IMG/VR virus record: IMGVR_UViG_3300010376_000046
Span: 1 to 50,375 of that record
DNA from: a virus
Taxonomy: Duplodnaviria; Caudoviricetes
Direction: 5' to 3' (one strand)
DNA: 50,375 bases
Part shown: positions 418-9,646 of the stretch, piece after piece
How the letters are laid out: each line of letters opens with the position of its first letter
Position numbering within the stretch: the first letter of the stretch is position 1
Made by a program: the position numbers and the translations under genes
The notes under the pieces: model-generated
Told to the model about the DNA's origin: nothing
The model's database searches: none
Seen by the model: only the letters and a program-made list of their open reading frames with translations

Positions 418-2342
418 AGAAGGAAAAAGTACTCAGAACGCCGCCAGACCCAGTCTGGCTGCGGGATGACTACCTTCCGTACCTTGACGAGGCGCTAGAG
501 TTCAACCCACTGAAGTTTAGTGACTCTGATCTTATACAAGCCGCTCTGATGAAAGAGCGGTTGGTATGGGACATTGAGTCTTATCCCAATTACTGGTGTT
601 GCTGCTTCCTGTCTATCGACAGTGGACGTTGCATCTACTTTGAATCTACGGATGAAGAACCGTGGTTCAATAAAAGCAAGCTGGACTGGATTCTAAGAAA
701 CTTTCAATTGATCGACTTCAACGGGGAAAAATATGACCGACACATTGCAGCAATTGCAGTCAAATCTCGAACAGACTGTCGCGACTATTGGGACGCTACC
801 CGAAGAATTATTCAGTTCAATGAACCTGGATGGCTGGTTGGACGAGATTACGGAACACGCAAACTCACTATTAATCACATTGACTTGTATGAACTCACCC
901 CTCTTGCACCAAGCCTTAAAACGATGGCAGGACGGTTAGGTTCACCATTGATGATGGACCTCCCGTTCAAGCCGGGAACTGAACTTAGCTACGAGCAATC
1001 AAGAATTGTGTTCTGGTATTGCTTCAACGACCTTCGCAATACTTGGTTGCTCTATGCGGCGCATCAAGAGAATATTGAACTTCGCCAGTCGCTCGGGCCG
1101 CGCTACCAGTTGGATTTGCGGTCCAAGTCTGATGCACAAATGGCCGAGGCGATTTTCAGGAAAGAAACTTATAGACGCACTGGCCAGACTCCCAAGCCGC
1201 CAGACATTAGGCCGTTCAATCGTTTTCGATTCAGAATGCCAGACTGGATCAACTACATGACTCAGGACTTGCAATGGGTTCGCAGAGCAGTCGAAACAAC
1301 TGAATTCATCATTGGAGAAAACGGCTACATACAAATGCCGGAAGTTCTTGCTGATTTGGTCATTCCAATCGGCGGTGCCTCCTATAAAATGGGCATTGGT
1401 GGGTTGCATTCGCAAGAAGAATCGCAGTCAGTCGTTGCTAATTCGCAATACAGGCTTTTCGACTTCGATGTTCCTAGCTATTATCCCAAGCTCATTCTCG
1501 GCAGCGGCATGTACCCGCCGTCGATCGGACCAGTCTTTATACCTATCTACCAGTCGATTGTTGATGAACGGCTGGCGGCGAAAGCCAATCACTTCAAAGT
1601 CAAAGCAGACGCGTTAAAGATCGTAGTCAACGGTACGTTTGGTAAGACTCTCGATCCCTACTCCATCATGTATTATCCCGAACTCGGGATTCAAACCACA
1701 ATCAGTGGTCAATTGGCATTGCTGATGTTGATTGAACGCGTGACGCTTGCGGGCTTCAATGTGGTCAGCGCAAATACTGACGGGGTGACGATACGGTGTC
1801 CAGCCGAAGCTGAGCGCTTACTTCATCAAATCGTCAAAGGATGGGAGCAGGATAGCGGGCTAGAGTTAGAGCCTACTGAATATGCCGCACTCTATAGCCG
1901 CGACGTGAATAATTACATCGCCGTCAAAACAGACGGCACGACGAAGACAAAAGGAGTATTCGGCGAAGCCGGATTGAAGAAGAACCCACAAGTTGAGATA
2001 TGTTCCGACGCTGTGGTTGCCTATCTCACAAAAGGTATCCCACTCCATGTCACTATCAACGGATGTTTGGACATTAATAAGTTTGTTTCTGTGCGTAATG
2101 TCCGTGGCGGTTGTGCTAAGGTATTTCCTGCGCATACTGAATATATTGGGAAAGTCGCACGATGGGCATACTTTGAGGGAGAGACAGGAGAGATAATCAC
2201 TTGCAACAAAGGGCATCTGGTACCGACGACAGAAAACGCTAGACCAATGATGCGCTATGATGGCGGATTGCCAGCAGGGCTAGATTATGAGTTCTATCAT
2301 AGGGTGGCTACCGACCATTTGACTTCATTGGGACTGCAATAA
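357..2342 (+). CDS. DNA polymerase, family B-like (phage type)
   Basis: Exonuclease motifs WDIESY, FNGEKYD, YCFND; polymerase motifs DFDVPSYYP, LKIVVNGTFGK, SANTDG, RDVNNY. Start may be ATG 363. Confidence 0.9.
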   Translation: MCMRFDDTGLFWSDWKPPKLKKEKVLRTPPDPVWLRDDYLPYLDEALEFNPLKFSDSDLIQAALMKERLVWDIESYPNYWCCCFLSIDSGRCIYFESTDEEPWFNKSKLDWILRNFQLIDFNGEKYDRHIAAIAVKSRTDCRDYWDATRRIIQFNEPGWLVGRDYGTRKLTINHIDLYELTPLAPSLKTMAGRLGSPLMMDLPFKPGTELSYEQSRIVFWYCFNDLRNTWLLYAAHQENIELRQSLGPRYQLDLRSKSDAQMAEAIFRKETYRRTGQTPKPPDIRPFNRFRFRMPDWINYMTQDLQWVRRAVETTEFIIGENGYIQMPEVLADLVIPIGGASYKMGIGGLHSQEESQSVVANSQYRLFDFDVPSYYPKLILGSGMYPPSIGPVFIPIYQSIVDERLAAKANHFKVKADALKIVVNGTFGKTLDPYSIMYYPELGIQTTISGQLALLMLIERVTLAGFNVVSANTDGVTIRCPAEAERLLHQIVKGWEQDSGLELEPTEYAALYSRDVNNYIAVKTDGTTKTKGVFGEAGLKKNPQVEICSDAVVAYLTKGIPLHVTINGCLDINKFVSVRNVRGGCAKVFPAHTEYIGKVARWAYFEGETGEIITCNKGHLVPTTENARPMMRYDGGLPAGLDYEFYHRVATDHLTSLGLQ

Positions 2343-2357
2343 TCTACCAAAAAACAG

Positions 2358-2386
2358 ATGCAAACTAGATTATCCTGCTTTAAAAT
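2358..2386 (+). promoter_or_regulatory. sigma70-like promoter for the secreted-protein operon
   Basis: ATGCAA-17 nt-TAAAAT, followed by an ~85-nt hairpin-rich leader. Confidence 0.5.
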
Positions 2387-2477
2387 AGCTTCATTGGAAT
2401 TAATCAAGAGATTCCCCGCAAGGGAGTTCGCAAGCCGGGGGCGACAAACTCCGGCATCCTATAGGAGCAGCACAATC

Positions 2478-2837
2478 ATGAAGAAGACCATCCTTGCAGT
2501 AGCACTGGCACTGGGTACGGCATCGGCAATGGCAGCTTCGGCTGTCGGCGGTATCGCCGGTTCCACGTCGGGCGCAAACTCGGTCGCGGCAACGGGAGTC
2601 GTCGGCAACGGCGCAGCAATCGCTGGTACGACGAACGCGACGCAGGGCACCGCCACGGTCGTCTCGGTTGCCGGTACCTCGGGCAACGGCGGCGCAGCAG
2701 GTGTTCAGACGAACGCTGGCACGACGTCGACCGGTCTTTCGGTCGGCGCTCATACCGGTGGCGGTTTCGATCTGACGGGCGGTGCGGCCGGTTCGCAAGC
2801 GGGTTCGGCTGGCTTCGGCGCATTCCTCAAGTTCTAA
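2478..2837 (+). CDS. secreted Gly/Ala/Thr/Ser-rich protein P1 (119 aa)
   Basis: AGGAG RBS; Sec signal MKKTILAVALALGTASAMA; mature part has only 1 Asp, 1 Lys, 1 His; C-terminal Phe. Confidence 0.8.
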   Translation: MKKTILAVALALGTASAMAASAVGGIAGSTSGANSVAATGVVGNGAAIAGTTNATQGTATVVSVAGTSGNGGAAGVQTNAGTTSTGLSVGAHTGGGFDLTGGAAGSQAGSAGFGAFLKF

Positions 2838-2853
2838 GCTCCACGCGTCTCGG

Positions 2854-2873
2854 TACCGCCCTTCGGGGCGGTA
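2854..2873 (+). terminator. intergenic UUCG hairpin (weak terminator or mRNA stabiliser)
   Basis: TACCGCCC-TTCG-GGGCGGTA with only a short U tail. Confidence 0.55.
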
Positions 2874-2895
2874 TTGAACTTTAGGAGCAGCGACC

Positions 2896-3231
2896 ATGAA
2901 GAAAGCACTGATTGCAGCACTACTCTGTGTCGCAGCTTCGGCCCAAGCACAGAGCGTGACCACCATTGCCACGACTGGAGTTCTCGGAAGCGGGACTTCC
3001 ATCACTGGACAATCGGTCGCAGCGTTCGGTAATCAGACTCTCACTCTCAACGTTGGGGCTGGCGGTAACAGTCTCTCGTCGGTGAAGACGGGTCCGGGTC
3101 CGGGCGTGTCTCTCAGCAGCATGTCAACTAGTCTGTCTGTCGGGGCAACTCTCGGCGGCGGAGTAGGCGGCGCAGGAAGCACAGCGGGAAGTACCGCGGG
3201 GCTTGGCCTCTCGTTACCACCGGGGTTTTAA
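2896..3231 (+). CDS. secreted Gly/Ser/Thr-rich protein P2, paralogue of P1
   Basis: RBS context TAGGAGCAGC shared with P1; signal ending AQA; aligns to P1 by eye; C-terminal Phe. Confidence 0.8.
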   Translation: MKKALIAALLCVAASAQAQSVTTIATTGVLGSGTSITGQSVAAFGNQTLTLNVGAGGNSLSSVKTGPGPGVSLSSMSTSLSVGATLGGGVGGAGSTAGSTAGLGLSLPPGF

Positions 3232-3279
3232 GGACGGAGCCGCCCCACCAGGGGCGGTTATCTTATGAATGGGGTAAAC

Positions 3280-4239
3280 ATGAAAAAGACCATCGTATTG
3301 ACCACATTGGCACTGGCGACAATGACCGCCTTTGGCCAAACTGCTGATTCGGGTTCAAGCTCGAACTCGACTTCAGGATCGACTTCAGGAGCACTCGCAG
3401 TTGGCGGGGGCTTGAGCAACGCTACTCTGAACTCGACCATTGGCGGCAATCGCAATGCAAACGCCAATCGTAACACCAACACCAACACTGCACGTGGGGG
3501 CAATGGCGGGAACGCAGCCAATACTTCGAACGTGACTGTGAACCTCGGCAGCGCGGCTGGCGACCCGAGCGGCACCGGCGCGAATGCACAGCCAGTAGCA
3601 AACGCTCAAGATCCACTTGGTTCAGCGGGCAATCCGCAGACCATCCACGAGAACATCAAGTCTGTCGGAAACCCGGGCGCAATGTCGTTCGGCGTCTCAT
3701 TCTCACAATACAACTGCGCTAATACCGCGGGTGCAGGCGTGGGTTTTATGGGTGGTGTCGTCCAGCTAGGGGGCGGACTGGAGTCGGCACCATGCAATGC
3801 ACGGGCCAACGCTTCGGCATTTTTCCAGATCGCACAGACTCTTGCGCAATCGAATCCGCAACTTTCGGCGCAATTATTTCACGCCGCAATACTTTTGATT
3901 GGCAACTCGACGAAGGACACGCAGTCCGCGCTCGCGGCGGCTGGGGTTTCTGACTGGGCCGCGGTAACTGGTCCTGCCACATATCCCAAAGCAGACCCGA
4001 CGCCGATCGTACCACCGCCAGCAGACGTGGGCAAGATTGGACCAGCTATCAGTCAACCACAGGTAGTATCGACGCCCCTCGAATCGTTGCCGCAAGCGCA
4101 ACCTCTTAGGGTCGAACCGATGCCAGCACAGCCGGATAAGACAGCAAACGAACCGGCCCCTCAAGTGCTTATAAAAAGCACGCCCGAAGCTGACGCTATT
4201 ACGGCACACGCGGCAGCTATCGCAGCGGCACAGAAGTAA
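3280..4239 (+). CDS. secreted protein P3: Ser/Asn/Gly-rich N-terminus, two-Cys domain, Pro-rich tail
   Basis: Signal MKKTIVLTTLALATMTAFG; FSQYNCANTAGAGVGFMGGVVQLGGGLESAPCNAR domain; alternative start 3265. Confidence 0.8.
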   Translation: MKKTIVLTTLALATMTAFGQTADSGSSSNSTSGSTSGALAVGGGLSNATLNSTIGGNRNANANRNTNTNTARGGNGGNAANTSNVTVNLGSAAGDPSGTGANAQPVANAQDPLGSAGNPQTIHENIKSVGNPGAMSFGVSFSQYNCANTAGAGVGFMGGVVQLGGGLESAPCNARANASAFFQIAQTLAQSNPQLSAQLFHAAILLIGNSTKDTQSALAAAGVSDWAAVTGPATYPKADPTPIVPPPADVGKIGPAISQPQVVSTPLESLPQAQPLRVEPMPAQPDKTANEPAPQVLIKSTPEADAITAHAAAIAAAQK

Positions 4240-4261
4240 CTAGAATACGTGGTGGTCTTTA

Positions 4262-4321
4262 AGCGACCAACGATATACGCGCATCACTGACCCCGGAGAG
4301 CGCAAGTTGGTCGCTCTTTTT
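4262..4321 (+). terminator. rho-independent terminator with large loop
   Basis: AGCGACCAAC...GTTGGTCGCT stem followed by CTTTTT. Confidence 0.55.
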
Positions 4322-4334
4322 CGCGGAGTCCTGT

Positions 4335-4604
4335 ATGAGCAAAGGTACCCACATGGCAAGCCTCGGACCTTGTGCAATTGATACTGTGGCTATTCGTGAT
4401 TTTTCCTCGCGCCGCTTATCGCGCGAACAGCTTCAGTTCATTTGGAAGATATGCGGGCCATCCGCGGAACTGAACTTGTCTAGAAATCCTCTGTGGATAG
4501 CACTCTGCATGGCTTATATCGAAGGTCTACAGCATGGCTCAGAGCTTGCCAAGACCGCTGAGCAACACGGAGAGAACCCACAGGGCAAGGCCCAACGCGA
4601 TTAG
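4335..4604 (+). CDS. hypothetical protein
   Basis: GGAG RBS; 89-aa ORF whose 3' end overlaps a convergent gene. Confidence 0.5.
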   Translation: MSKGTHMASLGPCAIDTVAIRDFSSRRLSREQLQFIWKICGPSAELNLSRNPLWIALCMAYIEGLQHGSELAKTAEQHGENPQGKAQRD

Positions 4605-4691
4605 ATTAACGCGCGGAATGGGAACAGCAATAGCAGCAAGAATGAATACTACAAGCGCCGCTACCAGAAGAATCATACTGACGGTAATCAT
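4539..4691 (-). CDS. 50-aa two-TM membrane protein (holin-like candidate), not in ORF track
   Basis: AAGGAG RBS; MITVSMILLVAALVVFILAAIAVPIPRVNLIALGLALWVLSVLLSGLGKL; last gene of the late strand. Confidence 0.65.
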   Translation of the reverse strand: MITVSMILLVAALVVFILAAIAVPIPRVNLIALGLALWVLSVLLSGLGKL

Positions 4692-4701
4692 ACTTCACTC
4701 C

Positions 4702-4971: not shown

Positions 4972-6498
4972 CTAGTTATTAACAAGTTTAGCAACCATAG
5001 CTTCCAGTTTTGCAAGGCGTAGCTCCTGAGCTTGAATGATTGATACAAGATAAGGCACCAACCCGATGTAATCAAGTGATTGATATGCGGGTTCTGCTTT
5101 ACCATCCACATTCGGCTGCATTGCATCCTTTTCGCCATATACCAACTCAGGAACGCTTTCAGCCGCTTCATGAGCTAATAACCCAGTACGTCGTATTTTG
5201 TTCTCTTGATCCTTCCGAATAAACGTGACTGGACGCAGTGCCATAATCGCCTTGAGTGCGTCCTTTACTACCACATTCTTTACTTTGTCCTTCAATCGGT
5301 AATCGCTTGCTTGCGTCCAGCTACCTGCATAAGTACCCACGCCGCCTTGATAGAATTGGAAATTGGGCGAAGTGTCGCTACCAATAAGAAAACCCACTAT
5401 CGGCGCAGAACTGGTTGTACCACCTTCATAGCCACCAATCATCGCCAGATGCCGACCGCCCCAACGCGTCCAGCGTATACCGATATAGGCTGACTGGTAA
5501 TTTGGACAAGAAACGCTATATGCAGCAGTTTGATTTTGCCACGCGTTCCACGAAGTACCGATATCCCCGTTCGTAACAAAAACGCCCGTTCCCGTCCCAA
5601 CTACTGCAGATTGAACATTACCGCGAGCCGTTATATTACCGTTGTCTGCTACAGTAAAATTAACAGCAGTGTTCGCGCTGTTGACCATTTCAAATGCGGG
5701 TATTCCATTGTTCGCCCGCATGTACACCACATAGCCCTGCGATGCCAGATAGAACGCCGGACTCATCTGTGCGCCACTGCTAGTATTGCCAACATATTGC
5801 GCACCTGAAACTTGCAGAATATTCTTTATATTGACTTGACCGTTTGAACGGGAAATCGTCAACGGCGAATCAAGCCATGTTCCAGAGTCATTCCACCGAT
5901 CAATCGAAAAATCTGATCCGCTGTTGCTGCTTTCTGCCGTCTGGTTCGCGCCGACTGCCCAACGATATACACCACTTGACTGCCAGTAGATGCCGCGATA
6001 GTTGCCAGCCGTGCCATTCAGCACCATGGTGGCCGCTGGAAATGCAATGACGGGTTGGCTCTGGAATGTGCCAACACCGCTTACCGTCAATGTGCCATTG
6101 ACCGTATGGGCACCACTGGTCAATGCTCCAACGGTCGCCGCGCCGCTCGACAGCGTTCCCCGAATGGTCGTGTTGCCCGCATCGTTGCAACTGATGTTCC
6201 ATGCACTGCCAGCCTTGTTGATGAAACCGAATACATCATTAACGCTGTCATAGGCAATATGTGGTCCTGTCGTACCTGCGCCCGCGCCATAGTTGAAATA
6301 CAATGTGGGTACAGTCGGTGCCTGGAGGTTGATGTTCTGCGCCTTCAAGTTGGTAGTCGCTGTGACATTCGCCGCGGTGATGGCACCCGTAACCGTGAGA
6401 GCACCACCAGCCGTAACAGACCCCGGCGTCGATACATTGCCTGACGTGTCACACGTCACCTGTTCGCTGAGGTTGACTAGATTCTGTGCTTGAGTCAT
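4972..6498 (-). CDS. tail fibre with C-terminal intramolecular chaperone (peptidase S74-like)
   Basis: Beta-rich repeats; SDYRLK cleavage motif, GLLAHE, DYIGLVPYLVSIIQ coiled coil. Confidence 0.85.
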   Translation of the reverse strand: MTQAQNLVNLSEQVTCDTSGNVSTPGSVTAGGALTVTGAITAANVTATTNLKAQNINLQAPTVPTLYFNYGAGAGTTGPHIAYDSVNDVFGFINKAGSAWNISCNDAGNTTIRGTLSSGAATVGALTSGAHTVNGTLTVSGVGTFQSQPVIAFPAATMVLNGTAGNYRGIYWQSSGVYRWAVGANQTAESSNSGSDFSIDRWNDSGTWLDSPLTISRSNGQVNIKNILQVSGAQYVGNTSSGAQMSPAFYLASQGYVVYMRANNGIPAFEMVNSANTAVNFTVADNGNITARGNVQSAVVGTGTGVFVTNGDIGTSWNAWQNQTAAYSVSCPNYQSAYIGIRWTRWGGRHLAMIGGYEGGTTSSAPIVGFLIGSDTSPNFQFYQGGVGTYAGSWTQASDYRLKDKVKNVVVKDALKAIMALRPVTFIRKDQENKIRRTGLLAHEAAESVPELVYGEKDAMQPNVDGKAEPAYQSLDYIGLVPYLVSIIQAQELRLAKLEAMVAKLVNN

Positions 6499-8000
6499 TT
6501 CAGTCTAGCCTCCAGTTCAACCACGCGAGCCGACAACTCTTTAATCGCTGCGAGCGCAAGCGGAATCAAATCCTGATACCGCAAACCAAGGGTGCCATCT
6601 TCAAGTGTATCTACTGCTTCCGGTAATACTTTCTGAACATCCTGTGCAATCACCCCAATCTTCACTCGTTCGGGGTACTTAGGATCAGCATTCTTTGCGA
6701 ATGAACTGTTTGCTTTCCACAGATATTTAACTGTCCGCAGTGTACCGATTGCATCGACTGCGCCAGTCAAATCTGACTGGATATCCTTCAGCGTCTCATC
6801 AGAGTTTGCGCCCCACGCAGTTGCACCCCACGACAGGAACACACCCTGCCCGCTGGCGTTATAGACGCAGAAGGCGTTAGTCGAGTCCGGTCCATTGGCC
6901 CAGTAGTTACCAGCTTGCCCATTCGACAGCTTAGTTGGAATAACTGAACTGCCACTAGTGATATAAAGTGGGGCTGCTGTAAGATTGTATTGTGTTCCGT
7001 CATAGTACAAATACTTACCATTGCCAGTCGGGCCAAAGTAAATCACACCATTGTTAGTATTGCCACCCCAACCTTGGATAATGACTCCACCGGCTTGAGA
7101 CAGTATGGTACCGCGTGCTGTCAGATTACCGGCAGCATCGCTGACGCTCATGTTCCACTGGTTGCCAGCCGCATTGATGATACCCATACCCAATGTGGCA
7201 TCACTGCTGACATAGCCCATACTCGCAGAGCCGTCAGACTTCTGGAAATTCATGTTGTTGCGGCAGATTATCTGTCCGATAGACAAAGTGGTACCGGCAA
7301 CTGTCAGTCCTCCGCTGATTGTCGCACCCGCACGGGTCCAGAATGCACCCGCATCAGTGATTGACATATTGACTGCGGTATTTGCACTGTTCACCCACTC
7401 CATAGAAGTATTGGTGCTGTTCGAGCGAATGTAGGGTGCATAAGTACCCGTCTGGATAATCAAGCCCTGTGGCGTTCCTGCTGGCTGGCTGATGGTCAAC
7501 GGACCTGTCATGGTATCGCCAGCTTTGGCAACTTTGGTATTGGCACTAGTTTGAACCGCATCCACATACTGCTTAGGCGCAGCACCCAACGCATTAGTCG
7601 GATTGCCAGACAGAATCAGCAAACCCGTCATCGTACCGCCAATCATCGGCACTGCGCCAATGTTTGCTAGAGCCGTTGCTGCATTAGCCACATCGGACAG
7701 ATTGTTGGCTTTCGACAGATAGAGATTCGGATTGATCGAAACTGCTTGCCCCGGTGCCCATACCAGGACTCGATACTGCGTGTTCAATGGCATCGGCGTG
7801 GTAAGCTTAATACTCATCCCATCGCTGTCATCATAATCCTTGTTTGCGCCAGTGCCTGAAAGCATGGCACCGCCTACCCACACATCGGCATAGCTAGGCA
7901 CAAAGCCACCGGGTATCCCAATGGACGTCTGATTGGTAGTCGCTGCACCCTCGACGGTAACTCGAGTGGTAGTCAGTAGTGGGTCGCCAGTCATGTACAT
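6495..8000 (-). CDS. tail fibre with C-terminal intramolecular chaperone
   Basis: LSKANNLSDV and GGTMTG..PT..A..KQYVD motifs; SDETLK, GVIAQDV, YQDLIPLALAAIKEL. Confidence 0.85.
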   Translation of the reverse strand: MYMTGDPLLTTTRVTVEGAATTNQTSIGIPGGFVPSYADVWVGGAMLSGTGANKDYDDSDGMSIKLTTPMPLNTQYRVLVWAPGQAVSINPNLYLSKANNLSDVANAATALANIGAVPMIGGTMTGLLILSGNPTNALGAAPKQYVDAVQTSANTKVAKAGDTMTGPLTISQPAGTPQGLIIQTGTYAPYIRSNSTNTSMEWVNSANTAVNMSITDAGAFWTRAGATISGGLTVAGTTLSIGQIICRNNMNFQKSDGSASMGYVSSDATLGMGIINAAGNQWNMSVSDAAGNLTARGTILSQAGGVIIQGWGGNTNNGVIYFGPTGNGKYLYYDGTQYNLTAAPLYITSGSSVIPTKLSNGQAGNYWANGPDSTNAFCVYNASGQGVFLSWGATAWGANSDETLKDIQSDLTGAVDAIGTLRTVKYLWKANSSFAKNADPKYPERVKIGVIAQDVQKVLPEAVDTLEDGTLGLRYQDLIPLALAAIKELSARVVELEARLK

Positions 8001-9646
8001 TATCTGGACTCCAAAGCTTCAACACGCCGGATCAGATCACGGATGACCGCGGCTTGTATAGCAATGATTTGTTCATAATCAATTGCCAGTTGCATGTCTT
8101 TGGGTGACTCGTATCCGTCATCATCAATTTCATACATGAGACCTTCACGCGGCGCAGCGGTCAACATTTCGGTACCGCTTGTGGATTGTTTACCCACATC
8201 TTGCGCGATGAACCCGCGTACCAAATGCTCCGTATCCCCATTCTTGAAAAACTGCATAGGCGTCACGTTCTGCACAAACCGATAGGCGTACTCAGTATCA
8301 ATCGGCACAATGTGGCTCTTAATACGCCGGTCGGAAATGGCCCAACACTGGTTGACAATCGCTGCCTGCGACGGAATATACAGCCCGGCACCTGTAGTGT
8401 TATTCGATCCCGTACCTGCGCCGCTCGTATTCAGGAAACCGAACCCGCCACTGATGGTATGAGAAGTTCCACCGTTGATGATGAACTGTCCGTTGCCATC
8501 TATCGAATTTGAAAAGTACTGCGTTGTATTGTTCTGATTGACACTGCGGAACACAAAGCCGCCTGCGCCCCCACCACGGTTGTTGACGAAATCCGTTTCA
8601 CCAACACCATTCGATTCATTCCAGTTGATGTAGGTGCCCTGACCGTAGACGCTCGCACCTCCGTTACCGACTGCGAACAGACCGCCAGCACAATGCATTG
8701 CTCCATTGGCTGAAACATCTGCGGCACCAGCAATCTGCCCGGTCGCCGTGATGTTGTTATTCGCATTGAGTGTTCCATTTACAGTCAGACCACCCGCTGC
8801 GATGGTATGCCCGGCACGCGTCCACAAGGCACCGGCATCCGTCAACGTCATGTTGACCGCCGTGTTGCCGTTGTTGACCCATTCCATCTGTCCACCGCTC
8901 GCATTATTCGAGCGGATGAACGGCGCATAGCCGTTGGCGTTCAGCATCATGCCGGGACTGAACTGACCTGATGTAGCTTGTATCTGGGTAATGCCGTTGA
9001 TATTGACTGGCCCACCCAAGACCGTGCCTGCGCCCGTCCCGTCAAGCGACAGCCCACCTGTAGCCAGATTCCAGTAGATCGGGCGATAGGTGTTCCATTG
9101 TCCGTTCTGGTTGCCACTGGCGGTCTGCATGAAGTACACCGCCGACGCATCCATATGGACCATGAAACCATAGTTGCCGTAGATCAGACGGAGGTTCGCA
9201 CCGTTCGCATCGAAGTTCGTACCAACGATGCCACCAGCCGGTACCGCCAGACCTGCGTTTGCCGTCAAGAGACCTGTGACGCCTAACGTACCGGCAATGG
9301 ACGTGTTGCCGTTGTCATCCCAACTGAAAATGGTTTTGCTGTTGGCTGCATTGGTGAAATAGGTAACTTTGGTCGTTATGTTGTAGGCCATAAGCGGGCC
9401 TGTTGCACTACCACCATAGAAAATCGGCCACGCGTAGGTCGCATTTTGTGCGCCCATGTAGATCGGACCATTCTGGTTCAATGATGCACTGTTCGTTTCA
9501 CCCGGCACAGTCAGCGGACCTGTCATCGTGTCACCGGGCCGCTGCACCGCTTGATTGATTTTGGTCTGTGTCGGAGCATCCAGCGAAGTCACCGGAATGG
9601 TATTCGGCGGAATGTTCAACGGATAGGGATTCGGTCCGAGATACAT
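8000..9646 (-). CDS. tail fibre with C-terminal intramolecular chaperone
   Basis: GDTMTGPL motif; SDRRIK, GFIAQDV, DYEQIIA. Confidence 0.85.
   Translation of the reverse strand: MYLGPNPYPLNIPPNTIPVTSLDAPTQTKINQAVQRPGDTMTGPLTVPGETNSASLNQNGPIYMGAQNATYAWPIFYGGSATGPLMAYNITTKVTYFTNAANSKTIFSWDDNGNTSIAGTLGVTGLLTANAGLAVPAGGIVGTNFDANGANLRLIYGNYGFMVHMDASAVYFMQTASGNQNGQWNTYRPIYWNLATGGLSLDGTGAGTVLGGPVNINGITQIQATSGQFSPGMMLNANGYAPFIRSNNASGGQMEWVNNGNTAVNMTLTDAGALWTRAGHTIAAGGLTVNGTLNANNNITATGQIAGAADVSANGAMHCAGGLFAVGNGGASVYGQGTYINWNESNGVGETDFVNNRGGGAGGFVFRSVNQNNTTQYFSNSIDGNGQFIINGGTSHTISGGFGFLNTSGAGTGSNNTTGAGLYIPSQAAIVNQCWAISDRRIKSHIVPIDTEYAYRFVQNVTPMQFFKNGDTEHLVRGFIAQDVGKQSTSGTEMLTAAPREGLMYEIDDDGYESPKDMQLAIDYEQIIAIQAAVIRDLIRRVEALESR

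Follow-up and report, generated by a model that had tools for sequence, protein, structure and literature searches.

The closest described relatives of the three-gene cassette analysed here (P1, P2 and P3) are uncharacterised genes of cultured phages: orf51/orf52 of phiAxp-2, gp71/gp72 of vB_Ade_ART, ORF070 of RSL1 and gp25 of JWDelta, which share with P3 a hairpin closed by a Cys-x25-Cys pair and followed by helices. In the portion of the phiAxp-2 report available to us orf51 and orf52 are listed without function (PMC5037462). Nor is a function assigned to any member that we saw of the wider family, PHROG 20531. The Achromobacter phages of this group have the same small uncharged gene upstream as the present cassette. 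Most PHROG 20531 relatives carry a second Cys pair, which P3 lacks, and the presence of two upstream paralogues sets the cassette further apart from them.

The window, by which we mean the whole stretch of 50,375 nucleotides analysed, holds a virus record whose completeness as a phage genome is estimated at 86%. Its PolB and that of Burkholderia phage BcepGomr share 52% identity; in BcepGomr comparable genes are absent downstream of the polymerase. PHROG matches in the window to portal, capsid, DNA ejection protein and tail fibres, and the lack of any to tail-tube, tape-measure or integrase among 50 further ORFs scanned there, suggest a podovirus of uncertain lifestyle. Of 692 candidates, 37 were picked up by a search with the P3 core; three of the 37 bear Paraburkholderia names, from which we infer a host among the Burkholderiales. 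The cassette genes lie immediately 3' of the PolB gene, all on the + strand, opposite to that of the structural genes (Table 1). A program-made ORF list puts the starts of P1 and P3 at 2358 and 3265; the MKK starts were used instead, because homologues begin there. The original prediction had set the cassette between the DNA polymerase and the convergent late genes: its position after the polymerase holds, but an 89-aa + strand ORF follows the terminator, ahead of the convergent tail-fibre genes. This ORF (4335-4604) has no leader; clear homologues are also found 3' of P3 in the related locus L010 and in the differently flanked L006, so that in this subgroup it may move together with the cassette. 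The tail-fibre genes themselves, three in tandem on the - strand (4972-9646), encode proteins of about 500-550 aa, each with an intramolecular chaperone domain at its C-terminus.

Table 1. Features of the cassette, in window coordinates.
Feature	Coordinates	Strand	Description
Likely promoter, ATGCAA-N17-TAAAAT	2358-2386	+	below scan threshold; long form unique in the window
P1	2478-2837	+	119 aa; signal peptide, then uncharged beta-rich chain; predicted major subunit; family alignments
GC-rich stem-loop 3' of P1	2852-2875	+	z -3.51; 0/200 shuffles
P2	2896-3231	+	111 aa; P1 paralogue; predicted minor or second subunit
GC-rich stem-loop 3' of P2	3239-3258	+	z -2.35; 6/200 shuffles; hairpins in relatives, several with T-runs
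P3	3280-4239	+	319 aa; signal peptide, uncharged N-terminal segment, Cys146-x25-Cys172 hairpin, three helices, Pro/Ala tail
P3 Cys-Cys beta-hairpin coding region	3715-3795	+	fixed length, amphipathic; 27-residue span in 127/130 aligned sequences
Likely terminator	4261-4321	+	long stem, internal hairpin, T-run; paired changes relative to L010

ORF coordinates and residue counts of the mature proteins confirm that the three genes are present with the nearly uncharged composition claimed for them. Signal peptides were called by eye with a crude hydrophobicity filter, and are Sec-like by pattern only. Mature P1 contains one Asp, one Lys and one His, and 71% of it is G/S/T/A; mature P2 contains a single Lys (G/S/T/A 64%), and both proteins terminate in Phe. 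The earlier view of the two as a paralogous pair is borne out: hhalign relates them at 97.9%, leaders included, and none of 1000 shuffles matches the score of mature P2 against the mature P1 profile; we take them to be paralogues. A match to a known family would have told against the original prediction; none is significant for P1, P2 or P3 in Pfam, PHROGs or NCBIfam. Searches of the phage collection by tblastn with P1 and P3 gave no match, and those of PDB sequences with the P3 and P1 profiles gave chance matches only. ESM Atlas offered unnamed clusters below 0.9, and a lead to DUF6322, at 0.77, was unsupported by Pfam. The AF2 model of P1 is all-beta but of low confidence (pLDDT 45.9), too poor to inform mechanism; a fold search with it reached a best Z of 4.3 and no clear solved match, which does not of itself make the fold new.

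Two readings of P1 and P2 can be weighed on these data. An exported paralogous pair of near-zero charge, predicted to be all-beta and adjoined in some chromosomal copies by biofilm-type regulators, could make a genuine cross-beta functional amyloid, nucleated by P3 in the manner of CsgB. Neither curli nor Fap families are matched, however; Asn and Gln together make up only 8% of P1 and 6% of P2; the two halves of P1, aligned with each other, score no higher than shuffles (35 versus 41 +/- 6), so that no internal repeat is detected; and the conserved core of P3 resembles a membrane hairpin with helices, not repeats. Amyloid, which was part of the original prediction, thus goes unsupported, and we judge it rather improbable. 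Small, uncharged, Gly-rich exported chains might otherwise be secreted membrane-active antibacterial peptides of the microcin type, for which P3 would be exporter or immunity protein; the composition of P1 and P2 is one that we take to resemble that of channel-forming microcins. The leaders, though, are of Sec type and not double-glycine, the neighbours scanned include no ABC exporter, and P3 often occurs alone with a long uncharged N-terminus of its own; we regard this as the least probable of the readings considered.

Mature P3 has two Cys, a NRNANANRNTNTNT ladder and a Pro-rich tail. In the P3 family the Cys pair is invariant across 130 aligned sequences, and exactly 25 residues lie between the two in 127 of them. 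Alternate positions of the hairpin so delimited form two faces, 59% bulky hydrophobic on one versus 3% on the other, the small face being 92% G/S/A/T. No charged residue occurs at positions 2-18 anywhere in the alignment; at position 21 Trp or some other hydrophobic residue predominates, and charges begin at 22. The two-face pattern was equalled in none of 1000 column permutations, the faces having been defined after the sequences were viewed. The AF2 monomer places the hairpin in the same register, at pLDDT <50, followed by three helices at pLDDT 80-95. Foldseek gave no match to this model at E 0.001, and the best Z in the fold search, 6.2, concerned the helices only; the solved-fold searches covered mainly the helices, and the folds are not thereby new. 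Ahead of the first Cys lies a segment with 2-10% charged residues in all 27 P3-family proteins examined; uncharged like the partner proteins, it would suit passage through a lumen lined with Gly and Ser.

Where this hairpin resides is indicated by fusions. Among the relatives listed, 9 of 120 carry an OmpA peptidoglycan-binding domain, which sits after a Pro-rich linker in the five that were read and was confirmed in Novosphingobium (L036). Such a domain would put the helices, tail and C-terminus of the P3 family in the periplasm, the outer membrane being then the most plausible site of the hairpin. In barrels to which each chain contributes two strands, a transmembrane hairpin makes a barrel only as an oligomer; the amphipathic, charge-free P3 hairpin, of membrane-spanning length, has the pattern that we would expect of this class, with the proviso that its faces were set post hoc. 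Counting the OmpA fusions of relatives as evidence beside the fixed-length, two-faced and charge-free hairpin, we predict P3 to be an outer-membrane anchor or channel, likely an oligomeric barrel. The earlier remark that no CsgG-like pore is encoded is correct in that P3 has no CsgG match, but with P3 resembling an outer-membrane hairpin oligomer the cassette may have a pore or anchor after all. P3 has no C-terminal aromatic beta-signal, which leaves its route of membrane insertion unexplained, and a hairpin returns both its ends to one side, so that exposure at the surface would need an extra threading step.

These features could also serve a structure internal to the envelope, strands of P1 and P2 combining with P3 in a composite outer-membrane pore or plug, or in a periplasmic scaffold, that alters permeability or envelope strength during infection. 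An envelope role is suggested by the OmpA fusions and by P3 relatives that stand alone; the alternating hydrophobics and final Phe of the P1 C-terminus form a pattern that we liken to the outer-membrane beta-signal motif; and parts of porin and TonB-receptor barrels give weak alignments with the Atlas model of P1 (TM 0.43-0.55, all below the tool's bar). Terminal Phe is not general, however, many partners ending in His or Pro, the strands of P1 have small residues on both faces, and a partner length of 105 to 243 aa better suits a passenger than a fixed part of a barrel. We consider such a structure unlikely.

The promoter and terminator ascribed to the cassette were partly upheld. A sigma70 scan found no site, but both boxes of the likely promoter are kept around an altered spacer in L010; no clear retention was seen in L006, L008 or L012. 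Two adjacent hairpins occupy the P1 leader (2409-2454), the second of which is retained with changed sequence in L010 and L012. The terminator is missing from the program scan listing and its stem folds no better than shuffles (z -0.99), but the same long 3' stem, with paired changes and a T-run, is present in L010. Within this element the long stem and inner hairpin are accompanied by a conserved CCCCGGAGA stretch, and it could be more than a terminator; Rfam gave no match within 2200-4700, and no RNA holder is listed for the cassette. The gaps 3' of the small genes contain GC-rich hairpins, unrelated in sequence, in all 17 that were folded from the present and related loci, a count made without shuffle control. 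The position of a stem-loop after each small gene suggests that P1 and P2 may be produced in excess over P3.

The trio P1-P2-P3 recurs in the same order in five other phage or prophage loci (L006, L007, L008, L010 and L012), the flanking genes varying from locus to locus; two contigs cut upstream hold P2-P3 (L014, L016), and one locus has a single small gene with P3 (L009). Searched with a P3 profile, 1.84 billion representatives yielded 36 matches, and none of 65 candidate stretches was confirmed as close P3 family in a scan of genome contigs; further searches added 12 viral loci and one genome locus. P3 itself matches no PHROG family at E up to 1. Its distant relatives match phrog_20531, of unknown function, at E down to 5.5e-14, and through them alone we assign P3 to the PHROG 20531 superfamily, whose features (leader, uncharged segment, Cys-x25-Cys hairpin and helices) are all found in it. 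The cultured phages were likewise reached only via distant homologues. Four Achromobacter phages, phiAxp-2, AXY1, vB_Ade_ART and 2-1, carry a P3 relative, related to P3 by hhalign at 99.5%, in a two-gene form of the cassette. When the P3 model is compared with predicted viral structures, phiAxp-2 orf51 ranks first (prob 0.99, E 0.086). Their upstream gene, translated in three cases, encodes a leader and an uncharged G/S/T/A chain; its products are related to P1 by hhalign at only 26%, and against the P1 profile 1, 0 and 11 of 1000 shuffles score as high.

A small uncharged exported ORF lies no more than 1.3 kb upstream of the P3-family gene in 29 of 35 distinct loci, and the same filter passed none of 544 other ORFs (80-300 aa, any frame). 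RSL1, RsoM2USA and JWDelta were added later; none has a small partner, making 29 of 38. Duplicates and re-fetches (L001, L002, L005, L011, L013, L016, L021, L033, L040-L047) were left out of the count, as were L027, on the same contig as L031, and L015, with no upstream DNA; L051, at 9% charged residues, fell just outside the filter. The statistic is descriptive, since the thresholds were set after examples had been seen and the loci are related. Homologues do, then, co-occur, the first check that the original prediction had proposed for itself.

Seven loci have a P3-like gene without a small partner, including those of RSP15, RSL1, RsoM2USA, JWDelta, EBPR podovirus 1 and L054, so that the small subunits are dispensable; in the first four of these the stand-alone protein has an uncharged N-terminus of 194-256 residues. 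For many partners (e.g. L028, L029, L034, L035 and L049) similarity to P1 is not significant, and some thus share its composition only. In the pelagiphages HTVC023P and Mosig a large, very acidic and likely exported protein is encoded 3' of the P3-family gene, replacing the small partner (L038:4514-5899, L039:2080-3915). One phage contig has, about 1 kb upstream of its cassette, a gene (L029:233-949) whose C-terminus we take to be PEP-CTERM-like. A prophage with the cassette carries a reverse-transcriptase-like ORF with a small ORF upstream (L024:516-2281), by eye resembling a diversity-generating retroelement.

That the cassette borders tail-fibre genes and has bacterial copies as a possible source might mean that its products are virion components, or neutral host DNA that the phage carries. 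The leaders resemble signal peptides, however, and the strand is opposite to that of the structural genes; the chromosomal copies lie outside prophages, and intact frames with conserved stem-loops are maintained in many unrelated phages. In the part of the RsoM2USA report available, none of the 10 identified virion bands corresponds to ORF147 (PMC8504454), a weak argument, these being abundant bands only. Either origin seems to us decidedly improbable.

Bacterial copies show that the module is not specific to phages, and on this point the original prediction needs changing; nor is the trio its usual form, which has one small gene, two, or none. The P3 family was found in 6 of 301 Burkholderiales genomes, and in one genus, that of genome G037, in 50 of 81, only the P3-family gene being searched. 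The G037 operon matches that of Burkholderia cenocepacia (L034), which begins with two small uncharged genes and continues with a 93-aa gene, then the P3-like gene, then one for 194 aa; next come a sigma54 activator, which has a VpsR domain by Pfam, and a LuxR regulator. Chromosomal copies sit among housekeeping genes outside prophages. A VpsR-domain sigma54 activator and a LuxR regulator also adjoin L050, and a LuxR regulator L051; in Variovorax (L035) the pair is flanked by response regulators and a diguanylate cyclase, and L053 has a diguanylate cyclase and a collagen-domain gene nearby. According to the part of the source available, VpsR regulates biofilm genes in Vibrio cholerae, and BerB lacks an N-terminal input domain (PMC5552954); the activator beside the Burkholderia operon has a VpsR domain, and on that account we do not equate it with BerB. 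The link to biofilm is suggestive only, since four of the seven Burkholderiales regions (L048, L049, L052 and L054) have no biofilm-type neighbour among the genes scanned. Two copies, in Variovorax and in genome G155, have 3' of the P3-like gene a likely exported gene of 110-114 aa with a shared VWHVPQ motif (L035:7795-8139, L044:1941-2273), possibly an accessory factor. One genome, G001, contains both a chromosomal (L051) and a prophage (L033) copy.

The reading we prefer is that the cassette builds a polymer on the surface of the infected cell with P3 as its outer-membrane anchor, for which we put the chance a little short of even. The earlier scheme of major and minor subunits plus an anchor fits the stem-loops and the OmpA fusions, but P3 now looks like an outer-membrane hairpin oligomer, and the module is shared with bacteria. 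The Sec pathway would take P1, P2 and P3 across the inner membrane. In an oligomer of P3 the Cys-closed hairpins would make a small outer-membrane beta-barrel, with the helices in the periplasm. Through unequal expression P1 and P2 would outnumber P3, and would stack by beta-strand addition onto its uncharged N-terminal segment; either that N-terminus or P1 and P2 would pass through the Gly/Ser-lined lumen. The barrel would thus anchor, and perhaps export, an uncharged beta-polymer that starts from the P3 N-terminus and grows by addition of P1 and P2; a stand-alone P3 form with a long N-terminus would combine the roles of anchor and passenger. In bacteria the module seems to be a system of the cell surface or of biofilms, one that phages have repeatedly taken up. 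For the phage, the most likely benefit would be masking of receptors against competing phages, or sticking of the infected cell to neighbouring hosts.

Drawn to its full extent, the proposal is of a minimal secretion-and-assembly system, in which chains with one disulfide-closed hairpin each come together as an outer-membrane barrel. This barrel would pass the uncharged N-termini of its own chains outwards and nucleate a fibre made of small Gly/Ser/Thr/Ala subunits. Bacteria would use the system for a surface structure or biofilm; phages from podoviruses to jumbo phages, lytic ones included, would have captured it to coat the infected cell. This fuller version is tentative, and more doubtful than a surface polymer as such. 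If true, it would provide a new and very small route for protein onto the Gram-negative cell surface, and would mean that phages, lytic ones among them, remodel the exterior of the infected cell with a captured host surface system. The different partner gene of the pelagiphage hairpin protein suggests a general anchor for surface display. Even should the fibre reading fail, there would stand a conserved, likely outer-membrane family common to phages and bacteria and without assigned function. Experimental access is offered by the cultured Achromobacter phages with the two-gene form, and by the genus with a B. cenocepacia-like operon in which 50 of 81 genomes have a P3-family gene.

No paper describing the cassette or a function of its family was found in a search that covered main texts, mostly outside the subscription literature; the function proposed here is a predicted one. 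New in the present analysis are the hairpin pattern with its numbers, the form with two paralogues, and how widely chromosomal copies occur. The likeness to curli (CsgA/CsgB/CsgG, type VIII secretion) is one of logic only, Sec-exported paralogous subunits in excess with an outer-membrane partner, and in some bacteria LuxR or c-di-GMP-type regulators near the cassette copies. P1 and P2 differ from curlins in having no curlin repeats (Pfam, NCBIfam) and little Asn or Gln; CsgG is unmatched, the neighbours being PolB, the 89-aa ORF and tail fibres, and no equivalents of CsgE, CsgF or CsgC were recognised. With Pseudomonas Fap (FapB/C/F/D) it has in common major and minor exported subunits in one operon; P1-P3, however, match neither the Fap repeat nor the FapF barrel nor the FapD peptidase, P1 and P2 are much shorter and rich in Gly/Ser/Thr/Ala, and no Fap genes occur among the scanned neighbours of the chromosomal copies. 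To OmpA-family proteins and trimeric autotransporters the P3 family is likened by its order, in some relatives, of membrane part, Pro-rich linker and OmpA peptidoglycan-binding domain, and by the predicted oligomeric barrel with an N-terminal passenger; P3 differs in having no OmpA barrel or YadA anchor match and no C-terminal beta-signal, and in its single disulfide-closed hairpin per chain, followed by helices. In its anchor, too, the cassette departs from curli: the predicted barrel takes two strands from each chain, and each chain would bring its own uncharged passenger segment.
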